Notes: generated by a model from the letters alone, not told the origin. Counted from the stretch's first letter, positions 1,503 through 64,000 are shown. The stretch: 64,000 nt of DNA from Candidatus Omnitrophota bacterium (GCA_040753015.1 JBFMHM010000001.1:82731-146730), one strand, 5' to 3'. A program made the numbers and translations.

Positions 1503-1530
1503 TGAACAAGGAAGAAATTAAAGTATAATA
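1503..1530 (+). promoter_or_regulatory. putative promoter (TTGAAC, 16 nt, TATAAT) upstream of 1538
   Basis: TTGAAC aaggaagaaattaaag TATAAT lies about 8 nt before the ATG, giving a near-leaderless transcript. Confidence 0.35.
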
Positions 1531-1537
1531 ATAAAAG

Positions 1538-2650: not shown

Positions 2651-2717
2651 CAACTACCTATATTTATGTTAAACTTTTTATTATTTTAATACCCTAATTT
2701 TAAAGGAAAGGTGGGTT

Positions 2718-3878: not shown

Positions 3879-3883
3879 AAAAT

Positions 3884-5512: not shown

Positions 5513-8500
5513 GCTTTGTCCATTTACATGTTCATACACAATTCAGCTTACTTGATGGCGCCTGCCGCTTAAAAGATTTATTTAAAAAAGCTCAAGATTT
5601 TAAAATGCCCGCCCTTGCAATTACTGACCATGGTAATATGTTTGGCGCAATCGATTTCTATCTTGAAGCAAAAAATTTTAATATAAAGCCAATTATTGGC
5701 TGCGAAATATATATTGCCCCTGGTTCACGCTTCGATAAAAAATTGAGCGCAAGCAAATCAGGTAATACCCGCGAAGAAGCTTCATACCATTTTATCCTTT
5801 TAGCAAAAAACGAGGCTGGCTACAAAAACTTAATGAAATTAGTCAGCATCGGCTATCTGGAAGGATTTTATTATAAACCAAGAATTGATAAAGAAATTTT
5901 AAGCGCACATTCTAACGGCCTAATTGGCCTATCTGCATGCCTAAAAGGGGAAATTCCTCAGGCCCTGCAATTTGATAATTTTAATGATGCGCTAAAAATT
6001 GCTGATGATTTTAGTGCTATATTTGGAAAAGGAAATTTTTATCTCGAGCTACAGGAAAATGGAATTAGAGAACAAAAAAAGGTAAATATCGATCTTTTAA
6101 AAATTGCGAAAAAATTATCGCTGCCAGTTGTTGCAACAAATGATGTGCACTACATAACAAGAGAAACCGCCAAAGCGCACGATGCTCTTTTATGCGTTCA
6201 AACTCAAAATGTCTTAAGCAATTCGAATCGTCTAAAACTTGAAACGGATGAATTTTATTTTAAAAGCGCCGAAGAAATGAAAAACCTATTTAAAGATTAT
6301 CCTCAAGAGATTATTTCTAATACACTAACTATTGCTGAAAGCTGTAATTTAAAACTAGACTTTTCTGAAACTCACTTACCAAAATTTGAACAAGACCAAT
6401 TCTCAAGTAACGAAGAATTTTTAAAGGATTTATGTCTCAAGGGCCTTACAAAAAGGTTCGATAAAATCACTCCGCAAATAAAGGAACGGCTTGACTATGA
6501 ATTAGAAGTTATTAATAAAACAGGATTTATAAGCTACTTTCTAATTGTCTGGGATTTTGTTAATTACGCAAAAAATAATAATATATCCGTCGGCCCAGGC
6601 AGAGGTTCAGCATCAGGCAGTTTAGTTAGTTATTTATTAAACATTACGGATATTGATCCTTTAAAATATGGCTTACTATTTGAAAGATTCCTAAATCCCC
6701 AACGTATAACTATGCCTGATATTGATATTGACTTCTGTTACGAAAGAAGACAAGAAGTAATTAATTATGTGACTAAAAAATATGGGCAGGAGAATGTTGC
6801 TCAAATTATAACTTTTGGAACTATGCAAGCGCGTGCAGCAGTGCGCGATGTAGGCAGAGTTATGGGCTTAAGTTATGCCGACGTCGATAAAATTGCAAAA
6901 ATGATACCACCCGATCCAGGCATCGATTTATCTACCGCGATAAAATCAGAACCCGAGCTAGAAAACATACAAAAAAATGACCCTAATATCAACCAATTAA
7001 TTGAAACAGCGCTCGCCCTTGAAGGCTTAAATAGGCATGCGTCAGTACATGCTGCAGGAGTTCTTATCGCAGATAAAGCATTAACAGAATATACGCCTTT
7101 GTATAAAACTTCTGACGATCAAATTACAACCGGCTATTCAATGGGAATATTAGAAAAAATCGGCTTATTAAAAGTTGATTTTCTGGGCTTACGGACATTA
7201 ACTGTTATTGAAAAAACCTTAAAGATTATTGAACAAACAAAAAATAAAAAAATCTCAATTAACGATATTCCTCTTGACGATAAAAAAACGTTTAGGCTTT
7301 TGGCCAGTGCGGAAACCTATGGTGTTTTTCAGCTGGAAAGTTCGGGAATGAGGGATCTTCTTAAAAAATTAAATCCTGATAGATTCGAAGACTTAATTTC
7401 TTTACTTGCGCTTTATAGGCCTGGGCCTATTGGTTCTGGAATGCTCGATGATTTTATGCAGAGAAAACATGGTAAGATACCGATAAAATATGACCACCCA
7501 AAGCTTGAGCCTATTTTAAAAGATACATATGGCATAATAATATTCCAAGAACAGGTTATGCGTATTGCAAGTGAACTTGCCGGATTCAGCCTTGCCCAAG
7601 CAGATTTGCTTCGCCGAGCAATGGGTAAAAAAATTCCTGAAGTTATGGAAAAACAAAGGATTGATTTTGTTAAAGGCTGCCATAAAAATACAATTGGTGA
7701 AAAACTTGCTAATAAAATATTCGATCTTATGGAATATTTTTCCGGCTACGGTTTTAATTTAAGCCATAGTGCTGCTTATGCAATGATTTCTTATCGCACA
7801 GCATATCTTAAAGCAAACTACTTAGTTGAATTTATGGCCGCGCTTCTAAATAGCGAAAAAAATAATACTGATAAAATTGTTGAATATGTTAGCGAAGCAA
7901 GCCGCTTAAATATAAATGTATTGCCTCCGGATATAAATGAAAGTTTTTCTGATTTTACTGTCATTAACGAAAAAACGATCCGCTTTGGCTTATTGGCAAT
8001 AAAAAACACAGGGGAGGGTGCGATAGAATCAATTGTTAAAGCAAGAGATGATGGAAAATTTAAAACTCTTGAAGACTTATCCCAAAGAATTGATTTAAGA
8101 CTTGCTAACAAAAAAGTTTTAGAGAGCTTAATCAAATCTGGGGCATGTGATTCTTTTGGGCTTTATCGCGCGCAATTAATGATGATACTTGAAGAAGTGC
8201 TTGCTAAATCGCAACGGCTAAACCGCGAACGCGATAAGGGGCAGCTTAGTTTGTTTGACTTTAATATTGACGTAGTAAAAACACCCAATGTGCAAGAATG
8301 GCCAAGTCAACAATTGCTTGCATTTGAAAAAGATTTCTTGGGTTTTTATATAAGCGACCACCCGCTAAACAGCTATTCAAGCACAATTAAAAAATTCAGC
8401 ACACCGCAAATAAACAAGCTTCCCCAACTTAAAGACGGCCAAGATATAAGAATCATTGGCCTAATTTCAAAAATCAAGCATACACTAACACGAGCAAAAA

Positions 8501-45730: not shown

Positions 45731-46033
45731 TTAAGTAATAATAGCAATTTGAATTAGTGATAAATCAATACCACCTGTAGGCTCTACTGAAGCCATTTTG
45801 GTACCAGATTGACCTGGATTTGGTAAGGCTTTTTGGGCTTGATTGGCTATAATTTCTAGTGCTTCTTGACCGCTAGGATTACCCGCAACCAACTGCGCAG
45901 TATCCGGCTTAACCCCGGCTTTAAGAAGTTTGGTTATAGCTAGATTCGTAAACATATTAATAAATTGTTTTATATCCTTTCCTAGCACAAGTATCTGCCT
46001 GGTCAGGAGCGCCGGGGGTGACGTGCCAGTCAC
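45731..46033 (-). CDS. hypothetical ORF overlapping the 3' end of the giant gene (possibly a frameshifted continuation)
   Basis: 100-aa ORF that overlaps 45957-51140 by 77 nt in another frame. No motif is recognised. Confidence 0.2.
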   Translation of the reverse strand: MTGTSPPALLTRQILVLGKDIKQFINMFTNLAITKLLKAGVKPDTAQLVAGNPSGQEALEIIANQAQKALPNPGQSGTKMASVEPTGGIDLSLIQIAIIT

Positions 46034-49000
46034 GACCCTCTTTACCTCTGTTAAAGAATTGTTGAGTTAGGCGGATGATTTGATAGTGATCTAGGTCTGT
46101 ATTTTCAAGTAATTCGTGGAGGATATATTCGTCAATTAAGTCATTTGGTAAACCATTCACTCCCTCCCTTTCACTTAAATATTGTATTAGATTAATTGCA
46201 AGAGCACTTTCAGCGCCTAAGAAGTAACGGTTAGGGCTTTCTACTTCGGCGTTAAACCAGTTAAATGGACAAGTTTCAGCTTCAGGCAGACCGAAGGCCT
46301 CGCCAGTTTTTAGTGGCGGGCCGCGTAAGCGATTGAGTAAACCTTGCGCGTCTTGTTGTGACATGCCTGCGTTGATCAATAAAGCTTCTATTTCAGCCCC
46401 TCTGTTATCCAACAACGCCTGTATTCGCCTATGCGCTAAAACAACAACTTCGCGGTTATCTTGTGCTACTTGGCTTGAGTTTGCCTTGATTGCTTCCCTC
46501 TTCCGCGCAAGTTCCTCTTCGCTGTAGCCACGCGATATTTCGCCGGTAGGAGTTTTAGTCCTCGCGTTATTAATATCGCGAATTATTCTCTCTATATCAT
46601 TTCTGACTTCCCTAGAACCTCGATTAAAAGCTGTTTCTAATGCAGGTAATGCTACTTTGCCGATTTTAATAAGGGATTCGATCGCAGAGTCGCGAACAGT
46701 AGGATCTTTCAAACACTCAATTAAAGACTCAACTGCTGGCCGACCGGTTTTAATAAGTGCTTCTCTGGCGTTATAGCGGACAGACCCATCCTCATCCTTC
46801 AAACATTTAATCAAAGGCTCAACTGCACGAGGATCGCCGATTTCGCCAAGGGCTTTGATAGCGGATTGACTGAGCAAATTGTTATCATATCTCAAGCATG
46901 CAATCAGACGCTCGACTGCTGGCCGACCAATTTTAATAAAGGCCTTAACGGCAGCTTGACGAACATTTTTATCCTCATCTCTCAGACACACAATTAGAGG
47001 ATCGACTGCCGGCTGGCCAATTTTAGCAAGGGCCTGGGCAGCTGCGTGGCGGATATCTTCGTTTTCATCTCTTAAGCACGTAATTAACGGTTCGACTATC
47101 AATGGATGACGACTCTCGCCAAGATTACGAATAATAGATTTGCGATCTGTTTCATCATCGGGATTAAGAAAACTGACCTGCCTTGCAACATCTTCTGGCA
47201 TCCCCAAATTACTTAAAAGTGTAATTAACCTACCCGTATCTATCATTAGATTTAGGAGATGAGGCGCATTAACTCTAGTAAAATCCAAATTAGTATGTGA
47301 TAATATATTGATTAAATTTCTACGCCAAGTAGCCCATTGTTCAATTTCTGGATTAAATGAGCGTTTTAATAATTGTAATAAATGTTTGTCCATAAGTTTT
47401 CGAGCTTCATCAGTACTTATCGCAGCTTCGGCATACGCAATTAAATCATTCACAACGTATGCATTACCTCTTTGCGCTAGAATGACAAGGATATCTTCTA
47501 TGTCATCCTTTGCCCGGGAAAGCCGCCATAATCTTTTACACTGTTCCTCTGTAAAATTTTTAGGATGATGTTCTGCTATTTGTCTAAGGCTAGTAGATAT
47601 TTCAGCGCTATATTTTGTAGTTTCTTGTTTATGTAGTCGGATAATTTGTAGTACCTTACGCATAGTATTTTTCGACTCTATTAACTCTAGGTATTCCAAC
47701 ATTACATCAATTGCCTTTAACCTCCCCAACTCAGCAATTGCATCTTTGCGCGCTTGATCTAAGTCAGTGCGTAAAGCAATAAGCACACGAAAGTCTGCTT
47801 TTAGTTTATGCCAATTATCATCAGTAGTTTCGATGATTTGAGCACATCTTTTAACTGCTTGCTCTCTTTGGCCTTTAGTCAAGTCGGCTGCAAGTAACAC
47901 GCCAGTTAGCTGGAATTCAAGCTCTGTGTTATATTCTTGAGGCCGTGTTTTAATAAGCGCCTCATGGAGTTCTCTTGCTTGATCTAGCGCTTCTACTGCC
48001 GGGCCGAGAAGAATACGTTCTGCTAATCTGCGTGAGTCTTGATCATATAGCTGTTGATTATGAACCATAACATCAAGCGTGCCTACTGCTTTAGGCTGGT
48101 TTATTCTAGCTAAGAGCAATGATAAAAATTCAACGCATCTTATTTTATCCGATAAGTCATAACCAGCTACAGCTAATCTAGGCTGGTTTTGGCCTAGTGT
48201 ATTAACAAAAATAGCTATTGCCTGAGGTTCTTGTACGGTTATAAGCTCTACCAAAAGATCAAAAGCAACAATGCCTTTATCTTTGGCAAAGCCTGCTAGT
48301 GCCTTAACAACATCTGCTGGTAGACGGCCAAGCATACATATATCCGAGACTCTTCTTAGTTCTCTTGCGTATATCTGTTGCGGTGAGTCACTATCTGTTG
48401 TTCTTGCTATAGCTGCAGCACTGGCTTGTTGTTTTAATTCTTGCAGCTTATTATAACTTCTACTAAGTTCAGTTTGTATTGCTTCTATGTCATCAATACT
48501 CTTTTGAAAGCTTATAGTTTGTGTTTGGCCTCTAGTTATAGTTCCTTGTTGCCTTATTGTATCTACTAAAACAATAAGCCTAGCTACAGTAGCAAGCCCA
48601 GCAATCTTATCTTCAGTTTTCATATGGGTTCTAATAGCAGCAATGTAAGGCTTGTATCTTCTTGTTTCCATCATATGGGCAAGAACATAACAAGATAATG
48701 GTAGATTAGCAAGGACTTCTTCAGTAAGCATTCCTTTGTATTGAGCAAGGCAAAGCCTAGCCCTTGCAGAGTCTAAAAAACTTAGCCAAGTTATTAGGCT
48801 TACCACATCATCAGAAGTCCTGGCAAAGCTTTTCATAAATACTAAAGTTGCTGTTTCTGTATCTAAGTAAGTGAGTAATTCTAATACAGCTGGTTGTATA
48901 TCTAACTGTCTTGTGAGATTAATTAGCATCTTAACAGCTTGCTCTCTATCACGGTTAGTACTCATAAGCAGCGCTGTTTGGCTAAACGCTTCTTGTCTTT

Positions 49001-51140
49001 GGGAATTAGTAAGACAAGTTGCTTCTTGAAGCAATGTTCTTAGCCTTTGAGCAAGCGGTAGGTTTGTAACAGGCCAGGCTCTATTTCTTAGAGAGAACAT
49101 ATCCATAACTCGTCTGGCTATACCTAATTTTTGCGGTTTTTCTTCATTTTCTGATGCTTGAGCTTCTGGAACAGCTAAAGCAGTTGTTGGTGCTATTACT
49201 TCAACAACATAATCTTCAGATAAAATACCAGCTGCTTGTAATTGTAATTCTGACCGTCTTTCATCTGTTATGGCCTCTGTAACAACAGCTAATCCTGGCG
49301 TAGATAGTTCAGCATTAGTTACAAATATTGGCCTGTTGGCAATATACCTTAAGTTCCAACCAAGCTGGCCAATAAAATAACTAACCCTTTGAGCTGACGT
49401 ACCACTATCTGCTATTCTTGTTTCACTAACGCTTTCTATAGGTAAATGTTCACATAAATAAGTAAATAAATCTTGCTTGAGATTGTCTGTAGTAACGCTT
49501 TCAATAATAACACTAGTCAAATATTCAAAAACTAGCTTAAGATAATCCGCGGAAGGAACATTCAAACTATCAAGCACGCCTCTTGATAAAAGAGCGGTTT
49601 CTTGGCCGACATAATTCAAACCAGCTTCAAGAATTAATCTTTGTTCATAGCTACCACCTCTACTTGCACGAATCCTACGGTCAAAATCTAACAATGTATA
49701 TGCTAAATGCCTACGCTTCTGTTCTGAATAAGCTAGGCCCTTGGATAAGTCTAGGTCTTGAAGAATTGCATTAGATGTTTGAGGAACACCAGCTATTAAA
49801 ATTATGGGATAATGAACCTCATCAGAAACAGCCATATACATCTCACCAGTTTTTAAGAACCTCTCTGCTGCGCCTTTGTAACTACCACTAGCTAAAACTC
49901 TACCTAGGTCTCTTTCTAACCTTTCTTGTCCTAGATCTACTCTTACATTAATACCAGCATCTTGAATATATGTACCCAGACGCATTGATCCATTTGCAGT
50001 TACACCAGGAAAGTTTTTAGGATCAAAACCTACACCCCCACTCACATAACTTCTCCTGATATTCGCCTTTAGCTCTTCATTGTAGTTAGTCTTAGTAAGG
50101 TGGTATTCCCCTTGCTTAACAGAATCTAAATAAGCAGCAAAGATTTGTTCTTTTGTTACAGGCTCTTTGGAGATTAGGCCGTTTAGGTTATTGGTGTTGA
50201 TTATTGAAGAAAAGGCGTTCTTCAGTTCGTCCGTTCGCTGGTTCGTCAGTTCTTCTAACTTTTCGCTTTGACTTTTCCCGCCTGAGGCGGGTCCGCCTTT
50301 GGCGGATACGTTTTCTTTGTACCACTTCGCAAGAATAATTGCATTGTATATTTGTCTTAAAGGCTCATATGATGGATCATGGTTTACTTTATAGGTTAGG
50401 TTAGGAAGTATTAGTTCTTTTAGTTGAGCTTCGCAGTAGGATTGTAACTCTTGGTTGTTATCAAACTCCCCCTTTATCCCCCTCTTTGGTAAAGAGGGGG
50501 TCTGGGGGAGTTGTAGATACTCACTTTCCAGTAACACTTTCAGTGTTGATTTGGTAATTACACAGCTTCCTTTACCGTCTTCGTATACTTCTGCTTTGTC
50601 TGGGACTATCCAGACACGGAAGGTTGTGGGGATAGATACAGTTCGACTGTTCTTCAGTTCGTCAGTTCGTCGGTTAGATAATTGTTTTGCCTTGGCAAAC
50701 ACACGTTCCCAATAGGTAGTTGCTCCAGTAGATAATCCGGGAAATAGGCTAAAGGCTGTGTCTTTCTTAAGCTTTAGGTCTAGGAGTAGTAGATGCTTGC
50801 CCATGTCTGTGTAGGATAGATTAGTTCCTGTGAGCCTGTTAGGTTGGTTTGGGTTAAGGTTAACCCAGAATTCAGAGTCTTGTATGGTTAGAGCGGTTAG
50901 GAAGTAGTTTATGTTGGTTTGTAGATCTTTACGTTGGTCTAGGGAAAGAATGGTGCCTTTGGGGATGTTTAGATTGAATTGGATACCTGTAGGGACAGAC
51001 CCGTGTGTCTGTCCAAATGTTATGCCTAACAATATAGGCGCCTGTAAGGGTGCGGTAACCGTACCCTGAATAAAACCCAAGCCTATTTGGCTAAAAGCTA
51101 GCGTAAAAATTAAAACCACAGAAACTATACGACGTATCAT
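45957..51140 (-). CDS. giant secreted protein (1727 aa) with PBS-lyase-type HEAT repeats
   Basis: Signal peptide MIRRIVSVVLIFTLAFSQ. The long all-alpha body has at least six HEAT-like repeats of the pattern PLI.CL.DED..VR..A..AL.KIG.PAV. Duplicated TDELKN motifs and Gly/Pro-rich in-frame palindrome segments are present. Confidence 0.7.
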   Translation of the reverse strand: MIRRIVSVVLIFTLAFSQIGLGFIQGTVTAPLQAPILLGITFGQTHGSVPTGIQFNLNIPKGTILSLDQRKDLQTNINYFLTALTIQDSEFWVNLNPNQPNRLTGTNLSYTDMGKHLLLLDLKLKKDTAFSLFPGLSTGATTYWERVFAKAKQLSNRRTDELKNSRTVSIPTTFRVWIVPDKAEVYEDGKGSCVITKSTLKVLLESEYLQLPQTPSLPKRGIKGEFDNNQELQSYCEAQLKELILPNLTYKVNHDPSYEPLRQIYNAIILAKWYKENVSAKGGPASGGKSQSEKLEELTNQRTDELKNAFSSIINTNNLNGLISKEPVTKEQIFAAYLDSVKQGEYHLTKTNYNEELKANIRRSYVSGGVGFDPKNFPGVTANGSMRLGTYIQDAGINVRVDLGQERLERDLGRVLASGSYKGAAERFLKTGEMYMAVSDEVHYPIILIAGVPQTSNAILQDLDLSKGLAYSEQKRRHLAYTLLDFDRRIRASRGGSYEQRLILEAGLNYVGQETALLSRGVLDSLNVPSADYLKLVFEYLTSVIIESVTTDNLKQDLFTYLCEHLPIESVSETRIADSGTSAQRVSYFIGQLGWNLRYIANRPIFVTNAELSTPGLAVVTEAITDERRSELQLQAAGILSEDYVVEVIAPTTALAVPEAQASENEEKPQKLGIARRVMDMFSLRNRAWPVTNLPLAQRLRTLLQEATCLTNSQRQEAFSQTALLMSTNRDREQAVKMLINLTRQLDIQPAVLELLTYLDTETATLVFMKSFARTSDDVVSLITWLSFLDSARARLCLAQYKGMLTEEVLANLPLSCYVLAHMMETRRYKPYIAAIRTHMKTEDKIAGLATVARLIVLVDTIRQQGTITRGQTQTISFQKSIDDIEAIQTELSRSYNKLQELKQQASAAAIARTTDSDSPQQIYARELRRVSDICMLGRLPADVVKALAGFAKDKGIVAFDLLVELITVQEPQAIAIFVNTLGQNQPRLAVAGYDLSDKIRCVEFLSLLLARINQPKAVGTLDVMVHNQQLYDQDSRRLAERILLGPAVEALDQARELHEALIKTRPQEYNTELEFQLTGVLLAADLTKGQREQAVKRCAQIIETTDDNWHKLKADFRVLIALRTDLDQARKDAIAELGRLKAIDVMLEYLELIESKNTMRKVLQIIRLHKQETTKYSAEISTSLRQIAEHHPKNFTEEQCKRLWRLSRAKDDIEDILVILAQRGNAYVVNDLIAYAEAAISTDEARKLMDKHLLQLLKRSFNPEIEQWATWRRNLINILSHTNLDFTRVNAPHLLNLMIDTGRLITLLSNLGMPEDVARQVSFLNPDDETDRKSIIRNLGESRHPLIVEPLITCLRDENEDIRHAAAQALAKIGQPAVDPLIVCLRDEDKNVRQAAVKAFIKIGRPAVERLIACLRYDNNLLSQSAIKALGEIGDPRAVEPLIKCLKDEDGSVRYNAREALIKTGRPAVESLIECLKDPTVRDSAIESLIKIGKVALPALETAFNRGSREVRNDIERIIRDINNARTKTPTGEISRGYSEEELARKREAIKANSSQVAQDNREVVVLAHRRIQALLDNRGAEIEALLINAGMSQQDAQGLLNRLRGPPLKTGEAFGLPEAETCPFNWFNAEVESPNRYFLGAESALAINLIQYLSEREGVNGLPNDLIDEYILHELLENTDLDHYQIIRLTQQFFNRGKEGRDWHVTPGAPDQADTCARKGYKTIY

Positions 51141-54002: not shown

Positions 54003-54509
54003 TTATAAAGATATTTTTTTAATATCTAGAGACTTGCAGAGCAACAATAATGTATTAAGCGTAATATTCTTTTTGCCCTCTTCAATTTTTGAAATATCCG
54101 GCTGATCAATACCGGTAACCAATGCTAAGTCCTTTTGACTTAAACCTTTCTCTATGCGCGCAATTTTAATTGTTTTTCCAATATTTAAAAATGATATTGG
54201 TACTGCCCCTTTAAATGTATGTTTTTTTTGAATACCTTTTTTTTCCAAAAGTTGATCGTAAACAGTTTGCCACCACTGCCGAAAATCTGATTTCTTTTCA
54301 ACTTTAATCCAATATAATTTTACCCTAGTCCAATTTTTAATAAATTCGTCTTTGGAAATAACAGAAAAAATTATTTTTGGCTCATCACATCGAGAAAATA
54401 AATTGACCAAGCGAATAATAAATTTAGGATGATTTGGATCTTTAAGAATTACTTTGGTTTCCTTTAAGGCCTTATCATTTAAGTCCCAAAAATATTTCGA
54501 TATATCCAT
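54003..54509 (-). CDS. XRE-family HTH protein with N-terminal domain of unknown function
   Basis: The C-terminal HTH reads IARIEKGLSQKDLALVTGIDQPDISKIEEGKKNITLNTLLLLCKSL. Its ATG overlaps the stop of the upstream gene (ATGA). Confidence 0.6.
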   Translation of the reverse strand: MDISKYFWDLNDKALKETKVILKDPNHPKFIIRLVNLFSRCDEPKIIFSVISKDEFIKNWTRVKLYWIKVEKKSDFRQWWQTVYDQLLEKKGIQKKHTFKGAVPISFLNIGKTIKIARIEKGLSQKDLALVTGIDQPDISKIEEGKKNITLNTLLLLCKSLDIKKISL

Positions 54510-55219
54510 TATTCAATTTCCTCCGCCATAAATTTTTTGACTTCGTTTTCTAGATAAATAATCATTTCTCGAGAATCAAAGTTTTTTATATAAATATCCA
54601 TATCAAGTAAATCAAATTTCAAATCCTGTCTAGAAAATGTTTGATACCAGTAAATCATGCCTCTTTGAATCTGACGGGGCAGTGTTTTTAAAAATAAATG
54701 CAGCGGCTCAATTTTCTTTGAAAGCATATAAATATCAAAAACATCTCGCGCTTTTCTCCTGCCCTCCATTATCTCAGCACCCACATCATTTTCTTTTATG
54801 CTTAAACCCGTAATAGTTGTGATTTTTTGCAAATAGATAATTTTCACATCGTAAACAGGCACTCCATCAAAATATTTTATTTTAGGTTTATCAAAAATAA
54901 CATCTTCAACAAAATCAAGTTTTAGGGATCTTTTTGTGCTTTTTATCGGGACAGAATAAAATCTCACTTTAGCCATATTTGGAGCTATAAACTCTGATTC
55001 AAGCTTTATATTAAGCCTTGTTTCTTTTTTAAATTCTTTTACAATCTCATTTATCTCTTTTACATCATATATCGGTGAAAAAAAATCCAAATCAACAGAA
55101 AACCTGTGATACAAATAATAAAGTTCGAGTGCGGTTCCACCCGTAAGTGCGAATGTTTTTGTTTTTTTCGCAAAAATATTTAAAATCTTATGCTGTAATT
55201 GCCTATTTTCCTTATCCAT
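54509..55219 (-). CDS. AbiEii-like nucleotidyltransferase (type IV toxin family, DUF1814)
   Basis: KTFALTGGTALELYYLYHRFSVDLDFF matches the AbiEii GGTAL...R.S.DLDF motif. Length is 236 aa. Confidence 0.65.
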   Translation of the reverse strand: MDKENRQLQHKILNIFAKKTKTFALTGGTALELYYLYHRFSVDLDFFSPIYDVKEINEIVKEFKKETRLNIKLESEFIAPNMAKVRFYSVPIKSTKRSLKLDFVEDVIFDKPKIKYFDGVPVYDVKIIYLQKITTITGLSIKENDVGAEIMEGRRKARDVFDIYMLSKKIEPLHLFLKTLPRQIQRGMIYWYQTFSRQDLKFDLLDMDIYIKNFDSREMIIYLENEVKKFMAEEIE

Positions 55220-55519: not shown

Positions 55520-56935
55520 ATGCCAATTACACTAAAATTTTGTGGTGGAGCACGCACTGTCACTGGCTCCATGCACTTACTAACTGTAGACAGAGTAAAA
55601 ATTTTAATTGACTGTGGCTTATTTCAAGGCAGGCGCGATGAATTTTTTGCGGTAAACTCTGAATTTCCTTTTGAACCTTCAGGAATAGATAACTGTATTA
55701 TATCCCATGCCCATATTGACCACTGCGGAAATTTTCCAACTTTAGTTCGAAAAGGGTTTCGTGGAAAAGCCTATCTTACACCTCAAACGCGCGATCTCTT
55801 ACGCTACATGTTACCAGATTCTGGACATATACAAGAAGAAGATATTAAATATGTAAATAAAATTAATCGCAGACGAGGATTGCTTCCTCGTTGGCCGCTC
55901 TATACACAAGCTGATGCAGAAAAATCTTTAAAATTTCTTAGGCCAATTGAATACCGCAAAACTATCGATATAGCCAAGGGTACAGGCCTTACTTTATATG
56001 ACTCCGGGCATATCCTAGGCGCATCAATTCCTGTAATTGATATCGAAACTAATAAAGGAAAAATTAGAATTGCTTATGCTGTGGATCTTGGCCGGCCAAA
56101 CCTACCTTACTTAAAGAATCCGGAGATTCCTGAAGATATAGATTACATTATAATAGAAAGTACTTATGGCGGAAAATCACACTCTGCTATTGAAACCGCT
56201 GAGAAAAAATTAGAAATTGCAATAAATAAGACTGTAAGACGCGGTGGAAAAGTTATTATACCTGCATTCGCGTTAGAAAGATCTCAAGAAGTTTTATATT
56301 TCATTGCGCGACTTTTTAAACATAAAAAAATCGAAGATATACCTGTATATGTTGACTCTCCGCTTGCAGTAGATATCACAAAAGTATTTATGAGCCATTG
56401 GGATTATTTTGATGAGGAAACCAGAAATACTTTTCAAAAAGAACTAGGACCGCTTTCGCACCATAATATAAACTATATATCCAATGTGAATCAATCAAAA
56501 AAACTAAATGACAAGAAAGGCCCAATGATTATAATCTCTTCATCGGGAATGTGTGAAAACGGGCGTATATTGCACCATCTAAAAAATAATATCGAAAACC
56601 CTTACAACACAATAATCGTAGTAGGCTTTATGGCAAAAGATACTTTAGGTAGAAAAATTGTTGATAAAAAACCTTTCGTCAATATTTTTGGCAGGCCTTA
56701 TCAATTAAACGCAGAAGTAGTATTAGACGATGCCTTTAGTGCTCACGCTGATAGAGAATATCTTGTTAAATATATAAAAGAATGCCGTAAATACGGAAGG
56801 CTTAAAAAAATATTCATTGTTCACGGTGAACCTAATCAATCTGATGAACTCAGAAAATCATTAAAATCATTAAACCTGCGAGTCTCTGTACCTGAAAAAA
56901 ATGAAGTAGCATTTCTTAATGCAAACCAGAAATAA
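55520..56935 (+). CDS. beta-CASP family ribonuclease (MBL fold, RNA-specificity domain)
   Basis: PITLKFCGGARTVTGSMHLLTVDRVKILIDCGLFQG and HAHIDHCGNFP match the family. The C-terminal beta-CASP His motifs are present. Confidence 0.78.
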   Translation: MPITLKFCGGARTVTGSMHLLTVDRVKILIDCGLFQGRRDEFFAVNSEFPFEPSGIDNCIISHAHIDHCGNFPTLVRKGFRGKAYLTPQTRDLLRYMLPDSGHIQEEDIKYVNKINRRRGLLPRWPLYTQADAEKSLKFLRPIEYRKTIDIAKGTGLTLYDSGHILGASIPVIDIETNKGKIRIAYAVDLGRPNLPYLKNPEIPEDIDYIIIESTYGGKSHSAIETAEKKLEIAINKTVRRGGKVIIPAFALERSQEVLYFIARLFKHKKIEDIPVYVDSPLAVDITKVFMSHWDYFDEETRNTFQKELGPLSHHNINYISNVNQSKKLNDKKGPMIIISSSGMCENGRILHHLKNNIENPYNTIIVVGFMAKDTLGRKIVDKKPFVNIFGRPYQLNAEVVLDDAFSAHADREYLVKYIKECRKYGRLKKIFIVHGEPNQSDELRKSLKSLNLRVSVPEKNEVAFLNANQK

Positions 56936-56937
56936 AC

Positions 56938-57708
56938 TTACTCTTTAGACTCTTCTTTTTTTATACCACTAACTTTTTCTTCTAACATTGCTTGTAATTG
57001 CTTTCTACCTGCTTCAAACTGTCTGCTTACATCAATGAATTTTAAATTCAAATCATCGTATTTTTCTTTTAAAGCAATAAATTCTTCTTTCGAAACCCAC
57101 TGGCTTTCTTCCTGTTTCTTATTCATATCAGCAATCATATCTTGATAACCCTTTATTTGGCTAGAATAAGAATCAATATCTCTCAAATTATTTTCTATCT
57201 TTAATCTTAGATCACTAATCTCATTAATTTTTACCTTAATTTCTTTATCTTTTAAGCCTGCGCTATCTACGGCTTCTCTTAATTCTTTATTTAGCTTTAC
57301 ATTTTTTGAAAATTCTTTTTCTAGCTCTGCCTCTTTATTTTTTAGAGTGCTTTCTAACTCTATAATTTTTTCATTAGCTTTTTTAAAACGCACTTCATCA
57401 TTCACAACCCATTCCTTTTGTTTCAATAATTCATTTTTGAATTCTAAATTTACAGCTTCTAAATTTTTTAATTGTTTTTGTAAATTATTAAGTTCTTGTG
57501 ATTTTTTTTCTAATTCATTTTTTAATCCATCGGCTTGACGTTCAACCCTTAAAATATGATCTTGGTCAGAATAGATCTTTTGTCTATTATCTTGTTTTAT
57601 ATATCTTGACTTATCTCTCTTTCTGTATTTTTTATCTTCTAGAGATAATGCATATATTACAATAGCGATTACTCCAATAATTAATATTGAAAATAAAAAG
57701 GGCATCAT
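56938..57708 (-). CDS. membrane-anchored coiled-coil protein
   Basis: An N-terminal TM helix is followed by about 200 aa of heptad-like Lys/Glu/Leu-rich sequence. The start is revised to the internal MMPF to avoid a 62-nt overlap. Confidence 0.45.
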   Translation of the reverse strand: MMPFLFSILIIGVIAIVIYALSLEDKKYRKRDKSRYIKQDNRQKIYSDQDHILRVERQADGLKNELEKKSQELNNLQKQLKNLEAVNLEFKNELLKQKEWVVNDEVRFKKANEKIIELESTLKNKEAELEKEFSKNVKLNKELREAVDSAGLKDKEIKVKINEISDLRLKIENNLRDIDSYSSQIKGYQDMIADMNKKQEESQWVSKEEFIALKEKYDDLNLKFIDVSRQFEAGRKQLQAMLEEKVSGIKKEESKE

Positions 57709-57715
57709 AACTCCT

Positions 57716-58666
57716 TCAATAAATTGTCTTTTTCGGCTTAATATGAATACCAGCCAAATGGTCGAGCCCATAATCATCTTGAATCCAGCCGTTATCTAAA
57801 TCACATTCTTGCATAATCCTTTTTGCATCTTCATACTCTACGGAATTAATACGCCGGTTAATCTGCGAATAATTCATGGCTTTATAATATGGCGTATATT
57901 GACTCATTAGGCTAATATGAATATCTTTTGAAACCTTCTTTGTAATAAATCTCATAATTTCATATGTACCAGAAACATTATCAGGTAATACTAGATGCCT
58001 TATTATCATGCCTTTTTGCATAACATCATTTTTATTAAATTTTACCACGCCTACTTGCTTATACATCTCAATGACAGACTCTTGATTATGTTTTGGATAA
58101 TCAGGCGCGGAAGAGTATTTTATAGATTGATCTTTATCGGCATAGCGCATATCTACTAAATAAATATCTATAACCCCATCCAAAAGCTTAATTACATCTT
58201 CAAGTTCATAACCACTTGTATTATAAACTAATGGAATTTTAAGCCCAGCATCAATCGCTAGAACTAAAGCTTCTAGAATTTGCGGCATAAAATGTGTAGG
58301 AGTTACGAAATTTATATTGTGGCAACCTTGTCTTTGCAATTCAATCATATAATCAGCTAATACATTAATCGAAATTTCCTTACCTTTATCTAATTGGCTA
58401 AATTTATAATTCTGGCAATATACACATTTTAAATTACAATGAGAAAAAAATATTGTACCTGATCCATATGTGCCAGAAATTGGCGGTTCCTCACCGAAAT
58501 GCGGCGCATAACTATAAACAATGGGCAGCCTACCAACCCGACAAAATCCTCTATCGCCTTTTAGCCTATTTACTCCACAGCGACGCGGGCAAATTGAACA
58601 TTTTTCTAAAAGGCTAAGCGAAAAATCACGGCGTTGCTCTAGTATCTTTTTTGTTAATTTCTTCAT
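57716..58666 (-). CDS. radical SAM protein (AmmeMemoRadiSam-type / PflA-like)
   Basis: The N-terminus has CSICPRRCGVNRLKGDRGFCR. The CNLKCVYCQN triplet is the CxxxCxxC SAM cluster. Confidence 0.72.
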   Translation of the reverse strand: MKKLTKKILEQRRDFSLSLLEKCSICPRRCGVNRLKGDRGFCRVGRLPIVYSYAPHFGEEPPISGTYGSGTIFFSHCNLKCVYCQNYKFSQLDKGKEISINVLADYMIELQRQGCHNINFVTPTHFMPQILEALVLAIDAGLKIPLVYNTSGYELEDVIKLLDGVIDIYLVDMRYADKDQSIKYSSAPDYPKHNQESVIEMYKQVGVVKFNKNDVMQKGMIIRHLVLPDNVSGTYEIMRFITKKVSKDIHISLMSQYTPYYKAMNYSQINRRINSVEYEDAKRIMQECDLDNGWIQDDYGLDHLAGIHIKPKKTIY

Positions 58667-59177
58667 AGTACCGGTTTCTAATTTCGTTAAATATCTTAAT
58701 ATATTCCTGGCTTGTATAATCCGAATAAGTCAAAGGATTAGGATTAAACGTATTATTTTTAAAAGTAAGCGTTATTTCAGCAAAAATACCCCGGTTTAGA
58801 TAGATCCGATGCGAATAATTTTTTGTTGTTGCAAGAATCAGCTTTGCAAGGTCTATGTATCCAGGATCAATATTAATCGAACGCCTAGCTCCTATAGCCA
58901 ACTTTTGCTCTATTTTATTCGTAAAAATCTTTATACGGCTTATATCTTTGGGATTAATTAATTTTTTGAAAGAGGCAAACTTACGAATCAAATTTTTCCC
59001 AAACTCATCCTCATAATACTTAGTATAGATAAAAGCTAAATCATTTGATTCAAAATCAACCCGGCCAAATTTATTTTCGAGTATATTCTTAGCCTTTGTA
59101 TAATAATTTTGGTTACGAAAAATAAAACCGCAGATTAATTTTGTTTTATTAGGCAGGAAAATCTCACCCATTAACAC
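58626..59177 (-). CDS. hypothetical protein (possibly DUF4416 family)
   Basis: 183 aa. The N-terminus is PNKTKLICGFIF. It is translationally coupled to the downstream radical SAM gene. Confidence 0.4.
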   Translation of the reverse strand: MLMGEIFLPNKTKLICGFIFRNQNYYTKAKNILENKFGRVDFESNDLAFIYTKYYEDEFGKNLIRKFASFKKLINPKDISRIKIFTNKIEQKLAIGARRSINIDPGYIDLAKLILATTKNYSHRIYLNRGIFAEITLTFKNNTFNPNPLTYSDYTSQEYIKIFNEIRNRYYEEINKKDTRATP

Positions 59178-59509
59178 AAATTTTGTTTAATATATTCGGC
59201 TATTTTTTGTTGGTCGGTTTTCTTAATATCAGTAAAGAAAATTGCGATATGATTATCGCCGTCTGAATCAACTTCAGTTCTTACTACAACGCCAGAACAT
59301 ATTATCTTCTTATTGGCGCTTGACGGTAAAAACATTATAATTTTAAGCTTTGTCATCAGCTCAAAATGCTTACTTACTCGGCAATATAAACCAGACGCGC
59401 TAATATTTCTACTTTCGGCTTCGACGTCAAAACCTTCAAGTAAAAGTTTTAGGGGCATATCCTGATTGAGCCGTGGATATACCCTTCTCTCTAAAAAACT
59501 ATTCTTCAT
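59171..59509 (-). CDS. PilZ-domain protein
   Basis: RRVYPR (RxxxR) and NISASGLYC (D/NxSxGG) are the PilZ c-di-GMP binding motifs. Confidence 0.6.
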   Translation of the reverse strand: MKNSFLERRVYPRLNQDMPLKLLLEGFDVEAESRNISASGLYCRVSKHFELMTKLKIIMFLPSSANKKIICSGVVVRTEVDSDGDNHIAIFFTDIKKTDQQKIAEYIKQNLC

Positions 59510-59530
59510 TATCTTATTCCTGCCTATTAC

Positions 59531-59701
59531 TTAGGCTTTACTGGCAGATTTCTTCTGTTTTTCAGCGAATTTTCCATAGCAAGATTTACTACAATAATAT
59601 TTGCTATTTCTATAATAACGCTTAATTTTTTTAATACGCTTATTGCAAGCCGGGCAGTTAGTTACAACCGCCGCTGTCTCTTTCGCTGCTTCTTCGGGCA
59701 T
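59531..59701 (-). CDS. putative small zinc-ribbon protein (56 aa)
   Basis: Hand-translated as MPEEAAKETAAVVTNCPACNKRIKKIKRYYRNSKYYCSKSCYGKFAEKQKKSASKA. AGGAGG lies 6 nt upstream. It is not in the ORF track. Confidence 0.35.
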   Translation of the reverse strand: MPEEAAKETAAVVTNCPACNKRIKKIKRYYRNSKYYCSKSCYGKFAEKQKKSASKA

Positions 59702-59794
59702 ATACTTCCTCCTCTATAATTCATAAAATATTATTTGTATAAATATTATAATACAAATATATACAGCTAATTATTTAATATTATACCAAATTAT

Positions 59795-60478
59795 TCATCT
59801 CGGTTCAAATGAGATTATTATATCGAAAAACTCTTTGTCTTTACCCAGCTCTTTAGGAAATGATTGAAATGGCGATGCATTCCTAACTGACCTAGAGCCT
59901 GCCTTCTTTAAATTATTAGGTAAACTATTTATGCTATCTTCTATAATTTCTATATCTAGAATTTGGCCGATATTTGATATAGAAAATACTAAGCGAACTT
60001 CACCAGTTAAGCTTCTTTCATTATAAAGTTCTTGATAAGCAGAGTGCCTAATCTTTTCCCATATTTCAAAATAATATTTATTAAGCTCTGTTGGGTTTCT
60101 CCTGTATTCACTTTGGATATTGGTCAAATTTACGGCTTGTGCCATAGGCGGTTTTGATTCTACTTTAGGCTCAAGTAGTACGGTCTCAAGTTTTGCCTTG
60201 ATTATTTCTTGAGGAATTTTAGATAATATAAGCTTTTCTTGTTTAGGTTTAATATTATCGAGCGAATCTTTTTCTTTATAAACAGAAAATTGTTTTTCTT
60301 TATTAATAAAGCAATAACTTACTTCGATTTTCTTATCGGGAATAAAAGTAAACTGCCTAAATATAGGCATACGCCAAATAATCGCTCCATGAGCAATCAC
60401 TGAAATCCCAATCATTATTTTAAACAAATTTTTTGCATCCATTATCTTAATTAATATCGCTTTGCCTCTGCCCGGCAA
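59795..60478 (-). CDS. TM-anchored protein with TonB-C-like C-terminus; candidate Rhs immunity protein
   Basis: An N-terminal TM helix is followed by the C-terminal segment TGEVRLVFSISNIGQILDIEIIEDS. It lies immediately downstream of the Rhs toxin gene and overlaps it by 32 nt. Confidence 0.45.
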   Translation of the reverse strand: MPGRGKAILIKIMDAKNLFKIMIGISVIAHGAIIWRMPIFRQFTFIPDKKIEVSYCFINKEKQFSVYKEKDSLDNIKPKQEKLILSKIPQEIIKAKLETVLLEPKVESKPPMAQAVNLTNIQSEYRRNPTELNKYYFEIWEKIRHSAYQELYNERSLTGEVRLVFSISNIGQILDIEIIEDSINSLPNNLKKAGSRSVRNASPFQSFPKELGKDKEFFDIIISFEPR

Positions 60479-63400
60479 CCGCTATACCAGACATACCATA
60501 GCTGCCATTAATTCCATAAAGAGAAGTTGAAACTAAATAAGAAGTAGACCCGTGTGATAATGTAGTAGTAAAAGCCCCTACCGCACTCATGCCACCAGCC
60601 ATCAAAGTATTAAACGTTGCCTGATGACAAGTTGCTGTCCAAGGCATACCCCAAATAACACCTTTTGTCGGATCTAATAAGCTAAATTGAGCAGAATCAA
60701 CAAGAACACCATTAACATTAACCAAAGCATTTACATGTCTTATACCTAAAATATTAAACGTCTTTCCCAAAAATGGAACTTGACCAAAAGCAGCATCCGA
60801 CGTAACTAACCCTTGCTCCACAAAAGAAACTTTAGGATTAAGACCATTATGTGTTCTTATATAATTAGCTCCTGTACCCCCCAAATTATCTGGATTTAAT
60901 GTTTCTTTACCATATTCCATTATCGCCCCTTGTTGATTTTCTACCTTTGTATAGTTTGGGCCCGTATAATTTGCTGGCATAGTTATAGATGATAAACCTA
61001 TAAATAATGCAGAGGATAAAGCCGTATGCGATACTAGAGATGAAAAAAAATCAGCAAACCTAGGAGACATCCCCAATACATCATCAAAAAATTCTTTAGC
61101 AAACCATCTTACAAATTGCCTACCTATTCCAGTGTCCAATAATGCTGTTGCTCCGGCTGCAGCAGCTCCTGCAGTAAGTGCCACTGTAGCAAATCCAAAT
61201 TTTGTAATTAAAGGTGCAAACGATGGAACAAGTGCAACAGTTACTATAGCAAGCACAGCAGCAATAAGTGGTTTAAAAATTTTTTTCCAAAAATCCTTCC
61301 ATCCTAATCCAGTTGGATCTGTGTATTTTAACGGATTGTTTCTACAATAACTATAGCGATTGAAATCTTGTGGATCGTAAATCTTCTGAGTAGTTGGATC
61401 CGGAGTAATAAATCTTGCTAATTCTGGATCATAATATCTTGCTCCGTAAAAATATAAACCAGTATTATCAAGCTCTCTACCATTAAATTTATAATTCGTA
61501 AGGTTATCACCTTCTTCTTTTGCACTCAATCCATACGGATAATATTCATTAAGCTGAATAATTTCGCCTTGATCATTGGTAATAATATTTGAAGATCCTA
61601 AATGATCTCCGTGATAATATCTACGCGATATTAAACCTGACCCAGAAATAACTGAACATATTTTTTGCAAACCAAGGAAAATATGATTAGTTAAAACTGT
61701 ATCCTCATTTTTTGAATTAACTTCGTATAAATCACCCACATAAATAGTCGAATCTAAAATCTGGCCATTACTATTTATCAAATTTTTCTTATATCTTCCC
61801 CCATCTGAATCATAATAAAAACGTGCAACAACAGGCTGCTGTTCTTTTATTAGCTGCCCCGGAGCACTACAACGGATCAAATATCCCTTGCCAAGATTTA
61901 ATCGTGCATTAATTTGTGTTTGCTCAAATTGAGCTTGTTGATTATCAAACATGTATAGTGCCTCTATTAGATTATTTCCCGATAACTTAAAGTTAGCGCC
62001 AATAAAATTATACTGAGAAACAAAATTCACCTGAACCTGTTCATCAGGAATTCTGCCTCTAATGTGTACAACCTTAGGAACATTTGACGATATATAAATA
62101 AAATATCCTCTCCCGTATTCGAGTGAATTAAATTGATTATATATCACATCTTTTACAAAATGTTCGTAATTTTGTGTATAGGGATTAAGCCGCGAAACTT
62201 GAAGATAATCGCTTAGACTCAATTCATTAAGCACAGAAGTTACCGCTAAATCATTTGGAATAACACTTAAAGAAAATGTATTCCATCCTGGATTAAGAGT
62301 AACCTCAACAGTTTTTTCTAGTTGCTGTTCATTGCGCACTTCAACAAGTCGATTATTAACATCATAATCATAAGCGACTATAATTTGATCATTTAACAAC
62401 TTAGATTTTAAATTACCATTATAATCATATATAAAATTTCTTCCATCAGATAAAGATGTAAGCGCATGAGGCCCTCCATAAGATAGACCATTTCCTAAAT
62501 TCGGGAGGCCTTGTTTATCGTAAGAATAGTTTAAATAATTATTGCGAATCATGTTTCCTATTGAATCATAACGATAATCAATAAGCCCATAAGAAATTCC
62601 GTCTGCTTGTATAAGACGATTTAAAGAGTCATATCGGAAGCTTTGAGTATTAGTATGTATCTTATCCTGTATCTGAGTAATATTACCAACAGCATCAAAA
62701 ACATAAGTCAAATCCTGAAGTATGCGATTATTTTGATTTCGCGAAATCAAATGTTCTAATCTAATCGTATTTGGATTATAAGCGTATTCTCTTATATCGC
62801 CATTACCATATACAACACGGCTAATCTGCCCCAATTGGTTATAGTCAACTTCTTGCACATATTGAATATCATCACTAGCCACCCCGATTATTTGCCCTGT
62901 AACCGAATCATATGTATACCTTATTGTTGTATTGTCTGGGTAAATCAAAACTTTGGGTTGGCTCAATGCGTCAAACGTACGCCTCATTTCATATTGATTG
63001 GAATCTATTGTTTTTATTGTCCTTATTTCACGACCTAAAGCATCATAAAAAAATTCAACTTGACCATCAGGATATTCTATTGTCGAAATACGACCAATAG
63101 AATCTTGTTTCTGAATATCATCATATATATGTGTTGCTAAAATTGTTGGGTTATTTTGATTTGTAGAATCTCTCTTTTGCATTAAACGATTAAGTTCGTC
63201 ATACGCGAATTCAATAGTTTGCCCTTTTGCATCAATCTGGGCAACAAGGTTCCCAGCCAAATCATAACTATAATTATATAACCCCATATCCGAATCAATC
63301 ATTCTAATCTTCCTGCCCAAAGAATCGTAGGTAAAAATAATTTGATTGTTCTGATTATCTATTGCTTGGACTAAATTATTTTTTGTATCATATAAATAAG

Positions 63401-64000
63401 AAGTTCTATAATTTTCTACCGCACCACTATCAGGATTAACATAATGTTCCGTAATTTGAATTATCCTATTATATGCATCAGTTGTAAAAACAGTAGAATT
63501 CCCGTTTTCATCAATAATAGTTTTACTAAAACCATCATAATTTACACTTGATGAGCTATTGTCTGCATTTAGCGTTCTTATTACTCTCCCAAGCACATCA
63601 TAATCAATAACAATATGCGGCTGACTCAAATCTGGCTCTGAAAATTGGCCTTGGGGATCAAAGGAAAAATATGGCACATATTTCTCCTTCACTCTTCCTT
63701 GATAATCAAAAGTTTGCGTATCTTGAATTATATAACGGCTTTGATGAGTATTTGGATCGTTTTGCGCAGGAACCTTCGTTTGAATAAGCCTACCTAAACC
63801 ATCAAAAAAAGAAACAATCGTTAAATAGTTATTAAGATCAAAGTGATCTATATGATCTTTTTTAATTTTTTTAATAATTTTTGTCGGAGTCTCGCCTAAA
63901 CAATACTCATAGATTGCACTAGGATTATCTTCTGTATCAAAAGGCCCAATAACTTTAACAAGCCTACCCAAAGCATCATAAATATTACGACTTATCTGAT
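60447..64000 (-). CDS. Rhs/YD-repeat protein with novel hydrophobic C-terminal toxin domain (5'-partial; continues beyond window)
   Basis: Many YD repeats are present (YDSLGR, YDALGRE, YDYNGN; the frame stays open to the window edge with ...YDALGRL). The Rhs core reads GARYYDPELARFITPDPTT...YCRNNPLKYTDPTGL. About 290 aa follow, beginning with 2-3 predicted TM helices. Confidence 0.8.
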   Translation of the reverse strand, partial: QISRNIYDALGRLVKVIGPFDTEDNPSAIYEYCLGETPTKIIKKIKKDHIDHFDLNNYLTIVSFFDGLGRLIQTKVPAQNDPNTHQSRYIIQDTQTFDYQGRVKEKYVPYFSFDPQGQFSEPDLSQPHIVIDYDVLGRVIRTLNADNSSSSVNYDGFSKTIIDENGNSTVFTTDAYNRIIQITEHYVNPDSGAVENYRTSYLYDTKNNLVQAIDNQNNQIIFTYDSLGRKIRMIDSDMGLYNYSYDLAGNLVAQIDAKGQTIEFAYDELNRLMQKRDSTNQNNPTILATHIYDDIQKQDSIGRISTIEYPDGQVEFFYDALGREIRTIKTIDSNQYEMRRTFDALSQPKVLIYPDNTTIRYTYDSVTGQIIGVASDDIQYVQEVDYNQLGQISRVVYGNGDIREYAYNPNTIRLEHLISRNQNNRILQDLTYVFDAVGNITQIQDKIHTNTQSFRYDSLNRLIQADGISYGLIDYRYDSIGNMIRNNYLNYSYDKQGLPNLGNGLSYGGPHALTSLSDGRNFIYDYNGNLKSKLLNDQIIVAYDYDVNNRLVEVRNEQQLEKTVEVTLNPGWNTFSLSVIPNDLAVTSVLNELSLSDYLQVSRLNPYTQNYEHFVKDVIYNQFNSLEYGRGYFIYISSNVPKVVHIRGRIPDEQVQVNFVSQYNFIGANFKLSGNNLIEALYMFDNQQAQFEQTQINARLNLGKGYLIRCSAPGQLIKEQQPVVARFYYDSDGGRYKKNLINSNGQILDSTIYVGDLYEVNSKNEDTVLTNHIFLGLQKICSVISGSGLISRRYYHGDHLGSSNIITNDQGEIIQLNEYYPYGLSAKEEGDNLTNYKFNGRELDNTGLYFYGARYYDPELARFITPDPTTQKIYDPQDFNRYSYCRNNPLKYTDPTGLGWKDFWKKIFKPLIAAVLAIVTVALVPSFAPLITKFGFATVALTAGAAAAGATALLDTGIGRQFVRWFAKEFFDDVLGMSPRFADFFSSLVSHTALSSALFIGLSSITMPANYTGPNYTKVENQQGAIMEYGKETLNPDNLGGTGANYIRTHNGLNPKVSFVEQGLVTSDAAFGQVPFLGKTFNILGIRHVNALVNVNGVLVDSAQFSLLDPTKGVIWGMPWTATCHQATFNTLMAGGMSAVGAFTTTLSHGSTSYLVSTSLYGINGSYGMSGIAVAGQRQSDIN

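Follow-up and report, generated by a model that had tools for sequence, protein, structure and literature searches.

Rhs proteins form a general delivery chassis, and each new family of tips that they carry represents a potential antibacterial mechanism together with its target. The Rhs core is established as the module through which the tip is released by autoproteolysis. The described systems that come closest to the locus treated here are: i) the Rhs/YD polymorphic toxins (Zhang et al. 2012, PMC3482391); ii) Tse5 (PA2684), a Rhs effector of Pseudomonas aeruginosa that encloses a C-terminal fragment able to form pores in membranes (PMC10684867); and iii) the Lipocone, Colicin M-like and papain-like acyltransferase tips, which are periplasmic toxins acting on lipid head groups and have membrane-anchored immunity proteins similar to BamE (Burroughs, Nicastro & Aravind 2025, PMC12419801). 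Here we describe a Rhs gene at the end of a stretch of 64,000 nucleotides (GCA_040753015.1, JBFMHM010000001.1:82731-146730; the whole stretch is called the window in the following) from the metagenome-assembled genome (MAG) of an uncultured Candidatus Omnitrophota bacterium, a group that has been proposed to live as predators or in dependence on a host (10.64898/2026.06.07.730766; PMC12419801). The type of system, a Rhs polymorphic toxin, is already well known; what appears to be new is the family of the tip and its fold. Judged by profile searches and a structural model, the C-terminal domain (CT) of the encoded protein appears to belong to a rare, undescribed family of Rhs tips with a fold that has no solved relative.

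The Rhs protein and its tip

The features of the Rhs gene are the following (window coordinates):

60447-64000, minus strand: Rhs/YD-repeat protein gene, 3' two-thirds, cut by the end of the window; recognised as an open frame with a match to RHS_repeat.
61833-62318, minus strand: insert in the shell of ~160 amino acids (aa), with two 'NPGWN.F.L...G.GY.I' units and without a Pfam family.
61305-61619, minus strand: Rhs-associated core, a putative aspartyl autoprotease plug that ends in DPTGL (TIGR03696).
60450-61304, minus strand: CT, 285 aa; a Rhs-tip family without Pfam or PDB match, for which an AlphaFold model was made.
61137-61301, minus strand: hydrophobic helices, CT residues 2-36 being strongly similar to a transmembrane (TM) segment and residues 38-56 Ala/Gly-rich and borderline (Kyte-Doolittle hydropathy and model).
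60981-61136, minus strand: amphipathic helix (T58, G61, R62, E71, F73, D74, D75, G78, M79, P81) followed by a long helix, residues 81-108 (conservation).
60450-60833, minus strand: alpha/beta subdomain with H190 (60735-60737) and, at the N-terminus of a helix, Cys/Ser226-His227-Gln228 (60621-60629) (conservation and model).

The open reading frame (ORF) ends with a TAA at 60447-60449, has no in-frame stop up to 63998 and is open past the end of the window. It contains RHS repeats (PF05593, E 1.9e-30 in Pfam; TIGR01643 also matched) and, at residues 810-889 of the listed ORF, a Rhs-associated core that matches TIGR03696 with 77.8 bits (cut-off 32.5) and terminates in DPTGL. The original prediction of a Rhs protein with a canonical core ending in DPTGL and followed by about 290 residues is thus borne out, the observed number being 285. 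We place the cleavage of the tip, tentatively, just before the G of GWKDFW. The ORF of the window is identical to residues 957-2139 of a protein of 2139 aa that was recovered from a library of representatives (P0008), and which according to Pfam carries SpvB, FG-GAP, TcdB_toxin_midN and RHS domains, its N-terminal part lying outside the window. By this domain composition, with SpvB, FG-GAP, TcdB_midN and Rhs in one chain, P0008 has the architecture of a fused TcB-TcC or 'BC cocoon' protein. The insert of ~160 aa, which could represent an external binding domain, is not confined to P0008: in P0024, P0027, P0028, P0032 and P0047, which carry the tip family too, it immediately precedes the final Rhs repeats.

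Searches for related families and folds

We compared the CT with the various reference collections. It matched no Pfam family, even at E ≤ 10, and within NCBIfam (E ≤ 1) only a chance-level match was obtained (NF005913, with an E of 0.16 and 10.6 bits, where the cut-off is 382). The search of the PDB sequences with the single sequence yielded no match, and the search with a profile of 45 sequences yielded chance matches only. Comparison of the CT model to the PDB with Foldseek gave a best E of 0.8 with a TM-score below 0.2, and no fold match was found in BFVD. Likewise, tblastn with the CT recovered nothing from the plasmid and phage collections, and a motif of the tip, DTGEGRQ, was not found in a search of the literature. 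The domain had been called uncharacterised on the basis of the sequence of the window, and this description holds: a match to a nuclease or deaminase toxin family was found neither in Pfam, NCBIfam and PDB nor with Foldseek.

A motif-level likeness only was found to the permuted NlpC/P60-LRAT/PLAAT proteins. It consists in the order of a His in a strand, an Asp in the next strand and a Cys at the N-terminus of a helix (H190, D203 and C226), and the local strings that were compared are RHVNALVNVNGVLVD versus RHWAIYVGDGYVVH of PLAAT3 and TCHQATFN versus NCEHFVNE (the PLAAT3 sequence was verified against PDB 4DOT). We consider this an unconfirmed lead. Alignment of the tip family to PLAAT3 with hhalign gave a probability of 0.14%, and no likeness of profile or fold to the permuted papain-like acyltransferases was found.

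Anatomy and conservation of the tip

The structural model and the conservation table were both derived from an alignment of 45 sequences (A3). With an alignment of 5 sequences AlphaFold reached a pLDDT of 33, and with the 45 sequences of A3 it gave a confident model (mean pLDDT 86.7, pTM 0.85). The model predicts the CT to be a single compact unit. Residues 1-108 contain five helices; these are followed by a linker that is variable, by beta-hairpins at residues 158-171 and 189-203, and by four helices at the C-terminus.

Hydropathy was evaluated as the Kyte-Doolittle (KD) maximum over 19 residues. It is strong only at residues ~9-33 (KD 2.33), borderline at residues 38-56 (1.67) and weak at residues 86-104 (1.45). 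Among the 37 family members with enough N-terminal sequence, 27 have at least one hydrophobic segment (KD ≥ 1.6), usually exactly one, and none is located beyond residue 108. The hydrophobic stretches that led to the earlier description of the CT as rich in TM helices are therefore present, but with one strong segment and the others borderline or weak the description was overstated.

Conservation within the family is highest in the helical module, charged residues included. The conserved polar residues form two sets in the conservation table: one in the helix region T58-P81 and one around H190 and residues 226-228. H190 is conserved in 43 of 43 sequences and sits at the start of a beta-strand in the model. 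Position 226, at the N-terminus of a helix in the model, is Cys or Ser in all 45 sequences (Cys in 32, Ser in 13); it is followed by H227 (37/45, otherwise mostly Gln, in 7/45) and Q228 (39/45). Further towards the C-terminus G238 and G264 are invariant, Y263 is found in 43/45 and G267 is conserved too. What had been taken for a Gly/Ser-rich tail without a motif is, in fact, part of a conserved alpha/beta subdomain that includes H190 and the Cys/Ser226-His-Gln motif.

Distribution, carriers and modularity of the tip family

A word-indexed search of 5.8 billion proteins recovered four relatives of the CT only (52-59% identity), and a word-indexed search with alignment A3 recovered 9 proteins. 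When 1.84 billion cluster representatives were searched exhaustively with a profile, 65 were recovered at E ≤ 1e-3, 15 of these at E ≤ 1e-30. The members whose source is named derive from Omnitrophota, Planctomycetota and Nitrospirae MAGs. In every member with enough upstream sequence, the CT (there 250-300 aa) is preceded by a Rhs core with the pattern NNPxxxxDPxG.

The carriers of the family are of four kinds: i) SpvB/TcdB/Rhs proteins; ii) DUF6531-Rhs proteins; iii) Laminin_G_3-Rhs proteins with PT-HINT; and iv) short 'mini-Rhs' proteins of ~450 aa with a Sec signal peptide, which contain only the last Rhs repeats, the core and the tip (L001 10001-11353, P0002; P0026; P0037). In addition, orphan Rhs-CT cassettes were found in two loci (L014 2182-2724 and L015 3507-4880), downstream of a main Rhs gene and the gene of its neighbour with a signal peptide. 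Such cassettes behind a main Rhs gene are the classic organisation of Rhs arrays. Since the carriers differ and orphan cassettes occur, the CT behaves as a swappable tip of a polymorphic toxin. The tip itself is modular, since its helical module (profile positions ~3-120) is also joined to unrelated and partly low-complexity C-termini in ~14 representatives.

Some features of the carriers and their loci deserve separate mention. The composition of the mini-Rhs proteins suggests a Sec-exported short form that is unable to build a full cocoon. In P0013 and P0017 a pretoxin HINT (intein-like) domain is located inside the Rhs region, just ahead of the final repeats. In the Planctomycetota loci L010 (6795-6977 and 8167-8349) and L011 (4800-5024), repeated short ORFs that start with 'MDRPYRLEAEDTCYHIT…' flank the toxin gene and the neighbour gene; these ORFs resemble the N-termini of Y1 transposases, which hints at the involvement of a mobile element.

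Genes adjacent to the tip in other loci

The genetic context of the tip was surveyed in 12 further distinct loci with a member of the family. The gene directly 3' of the CT, which often overlaps the Rhs stop, codes in 10 of them (L001, L005, L010, L011, L014, L015, L016, L017, L019 and L020) for a small protein that has either a signal peptide or a lipobox. The CTs that are paired with this recurrent neighbour have 41-59% identity to the CT of the window. Of the two remaining loci, L013 carries a gene for a different lipoprotein and L012 has no such gene.

The neighbour proteins contain, once or twice, a unit with the pattern 'GM(S/P/T/N)x(E/D)(E/D/Q)(F/V) … (W/Y)xY … (V/L)xF(K)xGxL'. Those with two units are ~205 aa long (L010, L011, L014, L015 and L016), and the neighbour in L001 is a one-unit relative of them (BLASTP E 5e-8 versus L010). 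Among the other one-unit proteins, those of L005, L017 and L019 are lipoproteins, whereas that of L020 has a signal peptide but no lipobox. In hhalign the group with two units aligns to that with one unit with an E of 2.4e-4 and a probability of 44%. A relation to BamE is weakly suggested by two results: the neighbour in L017 matches the Pfam BamE family with an E of 6e-4 (20.0 bits, below the cut-off of 23.2), and 7 of the 10 weak matches of the neighbour profile in the PDB are BamE (E 0.39-1.3). The hhalign probability of the neighbour family against E. coli BamE was 0.3%. Burroughs et al. (2025, PMC12419801) report that, among toxins directed at lipid head groups in the periplasm or within the membrane, immunity is most commonly provided by membrane-anchored BamE-like proteins. 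We infer that the exported neighbours are the immunity proteins of the tip, and because these partners are exported, the tip would act either in the periplasm or on the inner membrane from outside.

In the window, a search of the 64 kb for the neighbour family with a six-frame HMM search and with phmmer gave nothing better than E 0.03. An immunity gene of the type that is typical of the family is thus absent next to the Rhs gene, the neighbours there being housekeeping genes except for an AbiEii/HTH pair (see below). For the window and for L012, where no immunity gene is adjacent, it is possible that the gene resides elsewhere in the genome, that it was lost, or that the toxin is aimed at other species.

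Proposed mode of action and alternatives

In the mechanism that we propose, the Rhs core would cut off the tip of 285 aa by autoproteolysis and, after delivery, the hydrophobic helix or helices would carry the tip into the cytoplasmic membrane of the target cell from the periplasmic side. There it would damage the envelope, most likely as a membrane-embedded enzyme that acts on a membrane lipid or on a lipid-linked precursor of the cell wall, with putative active residues in two polar clusters (T58/R62/E71/D74/D75 and H190/Cys-or-Ser226/H227/Q228). The toxicity of the tip, its site of action and its enzymatic chemistry are all inferred, and we hold this reading to be the leading one while giving it about an even chance, and the membrane-embedded enzyme in particular slightly less. 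Catalysis is favoured because of the invariant H190 and the strict occurrence of Cys or Ser at the N-terminus of a helix, and action on lipids from the periplasm would fit because the BamE-like neighbours match the genetic context that was described by Burroughs et al. (2025).

Several observations weigh against a membrane-embedded enzyme. The tip has no relative in sequence or fold with a known chemistry, so that the term enzyme is derived from the pattern of conservation alone; Gln takes the place of H227 in 7 of the 45 sequences, and a helix N-cap might be all that position 226 provides; a helical module that is joined to unrelated C-termini would be just as compatible with a module that acts on membranes by itself, for example as a pore former; the assignment of the neighbours to BamE is below the curated thresholds; and the signal peptides of the neighbours could reflect only the protection of the producer during Sec export through the periplasm.

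The original suggestion of a membrane-disrupting tip stands as a possible one of two live mechanisms. The tip would then be a non-enzymatic pore former or ionophore like the Tse5-CT of Pseudomonas aeruginosa, the helices of which insert in the inner membrane and dissipate the potential, with the alpha/beta part as an accessory. This is the main rival, which ranks first among the alternatives, although we regard it as rather unlikely. It would account for the one strong and two marginal hydrophobic helices, the Ala/Gly-rich helix and the Gly-rich C-terminus, the recurrence of the helical module with unrelated or low-complexity C-termini and the failure to detect an enzyme fold, and Tse5 provides the precedent of a pore-forming tip that is encapsulated by a Rhs protein (PMC10684867). 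It is less easily reconciled with the strict H190 and Cys/Ser226 across 45 sequences, which would be unexpected for an accessory domain, nor does the CT resemble any PDB chain in sequence. The recurrent neighbours, moreover, are soluble secreted proteins or lipoproteins and not integral membrane proteins. Immunity to pore-forming colicins and to ionophoric CdiA-CTs is typically provided by an integral membrane protein. Imm-CdiI, for instance, is listed as a protein with two TM segments (Zhang et al. 2012, PMC3482391).

The layout that ranks third overall is the two-part one of CdiA-CTs and colicins, in which the N-terminal hydrophobic half would be a translocation module and the alpha/beta domain an enzyme that acts in the cytoplasm. 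The combination of the helical module with different C-termini and a Cys/Ser-His motif that suggests a hydrolase or transferase both agree with this layout, which is nevertheless improbable in our view: a toxin in the cytoplasm would be out of reach of neighbours that bear a signal peptide or lipobox, the AlphaFold model is one compact unit (pTM 0.85) and not two independent domains, and it is the helical module that is most conserved, its charged residues included.

Lower still do we rank the possibility that the CT is a non-toxic C-terminal membrane anchor or structural module, by which the Rhs protein is tethered to the envelope of the producer. A hydrophobic helix is present and no immunity gene was found at the locus of the window or at L012, as would suit an anchor; the CT, however, sits past the autoproteolytic DPxGL site, is swapped among Rhs carriers that are unrelated, is also found in orphan cassettes, has in most cases a small, variable, secreted protein as its partner and has conserved polar motifs, which together make this explanation very improbable.

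If the tip is an enzyme, it would add a new chemistry to those that target the envelope. A more far-reaching version, namely that the tip is the first example of a new fold, a membrane-embedded enzyme with a Cys/Ser-His (plus Asp-Asp/Arg) arrangement that is directed against envelope lipids or lipid-linked wall precursors and is used without a linked immunity gene, we consider a speculative and, on balance, unlikely proposal. Such an enzyme, if real, would serve a predatory or host-dependent bacterium as a weapon against other species and not as a toxin for the discrimination of kin. Should the missing immunity gene indeed mean interspecies use, the protein would be a concrete candidate for an effector in the predation or host dependence of the Omnitrophota, which is poorly understood.

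The downstream TonB-like gene

Downstream of the Rhs gene the following features were recorded:

59795-60442, minus strand: TonB-family gene, locus tag AB1755_00750, 215 aa, with an N-terminal membrane helix S14-x3-H18, a Lys/Pro/Glu-rich linker and a weak TonB_C domain.
55520-59701, no strand assigned: genes for a Zn-ribbon protein, a PilZ protein, a DUF4416 protein, a radical SAM protein, a coiled-coil protein and a beta-CASP nuclease (Pfam; context only).

The original prediction had the downstream gene overlap the Rhs gene by 32 nt. Such an overlap requires an upstream TTG start at 60478 and is an artefact of choosing the longest ORF: the NCBI product of the gene has 215 aa (100% identical) and starts with the ATG at 60442, both orthologues that were recovered (P0006 and P0007; loci L008 and L009) align from the Met at this start, and between the Rhs stop and the ATG there is a gap of 4 nt. 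Given the same strand and this short gap, the two genes are probably co-transcribed; around their junction promoter-like sites did not exceed the shuffled expectation and three terminator-like sites did so only slightly.

The protein had been described as TM-anchored and TonB-C-like. The membrane helix is there and the similarity to TonB_C is real, but the latter stays below threshold, with 19.1-19.2 bits for PF03544 (cut-off 24.6) and 15.9 bits for TIGR01352 (cut-off 27.1). Within the membrane helix (ISVIAHGAII) S14 and H18 are invariant across the three orthologues, and S-x3-H is what we take to be the signature of the TonB TM helix (S16/H20 in E. coli). The protein resembles TonB in having an N-terminal helix with S-x3-H, a charged linker that contains Pro, a C-terminal domain that is similar to TonB_C and a linkage to receptor genes; it differs in that the TonB_C score is under the thresholds of both Pfam and TIGRFAM.

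The genomic context of the orthologues is informative. In L008 the orthologue (65% identity) is found 47 nt past a gene encoding a TonB-dependent receptor that ends in …FYGGFRLNF, and in L009 the orthologue (54% identity) directly follows a Plug/TonB_dep_Rec gene within a cluster for the uptake and salvage of cobalamin. Window positions 55520-60442 and L008 positions 1257-6182 have the same gene order, from the tonB-like gene through the beta-CASP gene, with amino-acid identities of 62-97% (the 97% stems from the short Zn-ribbon match, the others having 62-91%). L008 contains no Rhs gene there: the Rhs gene of the window occupies the position that is held by the TonB-dependent receptor in the related genome. 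Since the orthologues follow receptors and the block is shared with L008, the TonB-like gene belongs to a conserved housekeeping context.

The gene had also been put forward as the cognate immunity or periplasmic partner of the tip, a role that would suit its position (directly downstream on the same strand) and the compartment of its product (a membrane-anchored periplasmic protein, as would be needed against an envelope toxin), and which we nevertheless reject and rate as the least credible of all the alternatives, in view of the orthologues that follow receptors (one within the same block without a Rhs gene), the S-x3-H motif of TonB, the lack of similarity between the protein and those encoded after the homologous CTs, and the pairing of CTs at 41-59% identity with another recurrent family. 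The TonB-like gene next to the Rhs gene should therefore not be annotated as an immunity gene.

Other features of the window

An AbiEii-type nucleotidyltransferase toxin gene (236 aa) and an adjacent gene encoding a protein with an HTH domain (168 aa) are located at 54003-55219 on the minus strand. They represent a type IV toxin-antitoxin or abortive-infection pair and interrupt the block that is otherwise syntenic with L008. Further away, a protein of 1727 aa is encoded at 45957-51140 (minus strand), the only recognisable domains of which are C-terminal HEAT/PBS-lyase repeats.

Comparison with known systems

The RHS repeats, the DPxGL core, the swapped tip and the orphan cassettes are shared with the Rhs/YD polymorphic toxins of Zhang et al. 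(2012), and the SpvB, FG-GAP and TcdB_midN domains, which are N-terminal in the complete P0008, are shared with the BC cocoon of the ABC toxins. Unlike in the described Rhs/YD toxins, the tip of the window matches no described toxin domain and a cognate immunity gene is not adjacent in the copy of the window, as opposed to the small exported neighbour that is found in 10 of the 12 homologous loci.

With Tse5 the protein has in common the Rhs cocoon and a hydrophobic, largely helical tip for which the periplasmic face of the inner membrane is the presumed site of action. The tip of the window differs from that of Tse5 in being without detectable sequence similarity to any PDB chain, in being twice as long, and in having a conserved alpha/beta part with a His and a Cys/Ser-His motif. 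The carriers differ as well, the one in the window being TcB/TcC-like and that of Tse5 being of the PAAR-linked type VI secretion system (T6SS) type, and, again unlike Tse5, the neighbours of the tip family are secreted proteins or lipoproteins.

The toxins that act on lipid head groups differ from the system described here in three respects, as the similarity of the neighbours to BamE is below threshold, the locus of the window is without such a neighbour, and the conserved residues of the CT do not appear to follow the His(H2)/Glu(H3)/Asp(H4) pattern of the four-helix cone that characterises Lipocone. What the two have in common is a polymorphic tip, which in some of the lipid head-group toxins is likewise carried on a Rhs protein, a hydrophobic or membrane-associated helical domain with conserved acidic and basic residues, and small neighbours that are lipoproteins or have a signal peptide and carry the BamE-like 'GMxxxxV … W.Y … F..G.L' pattern.

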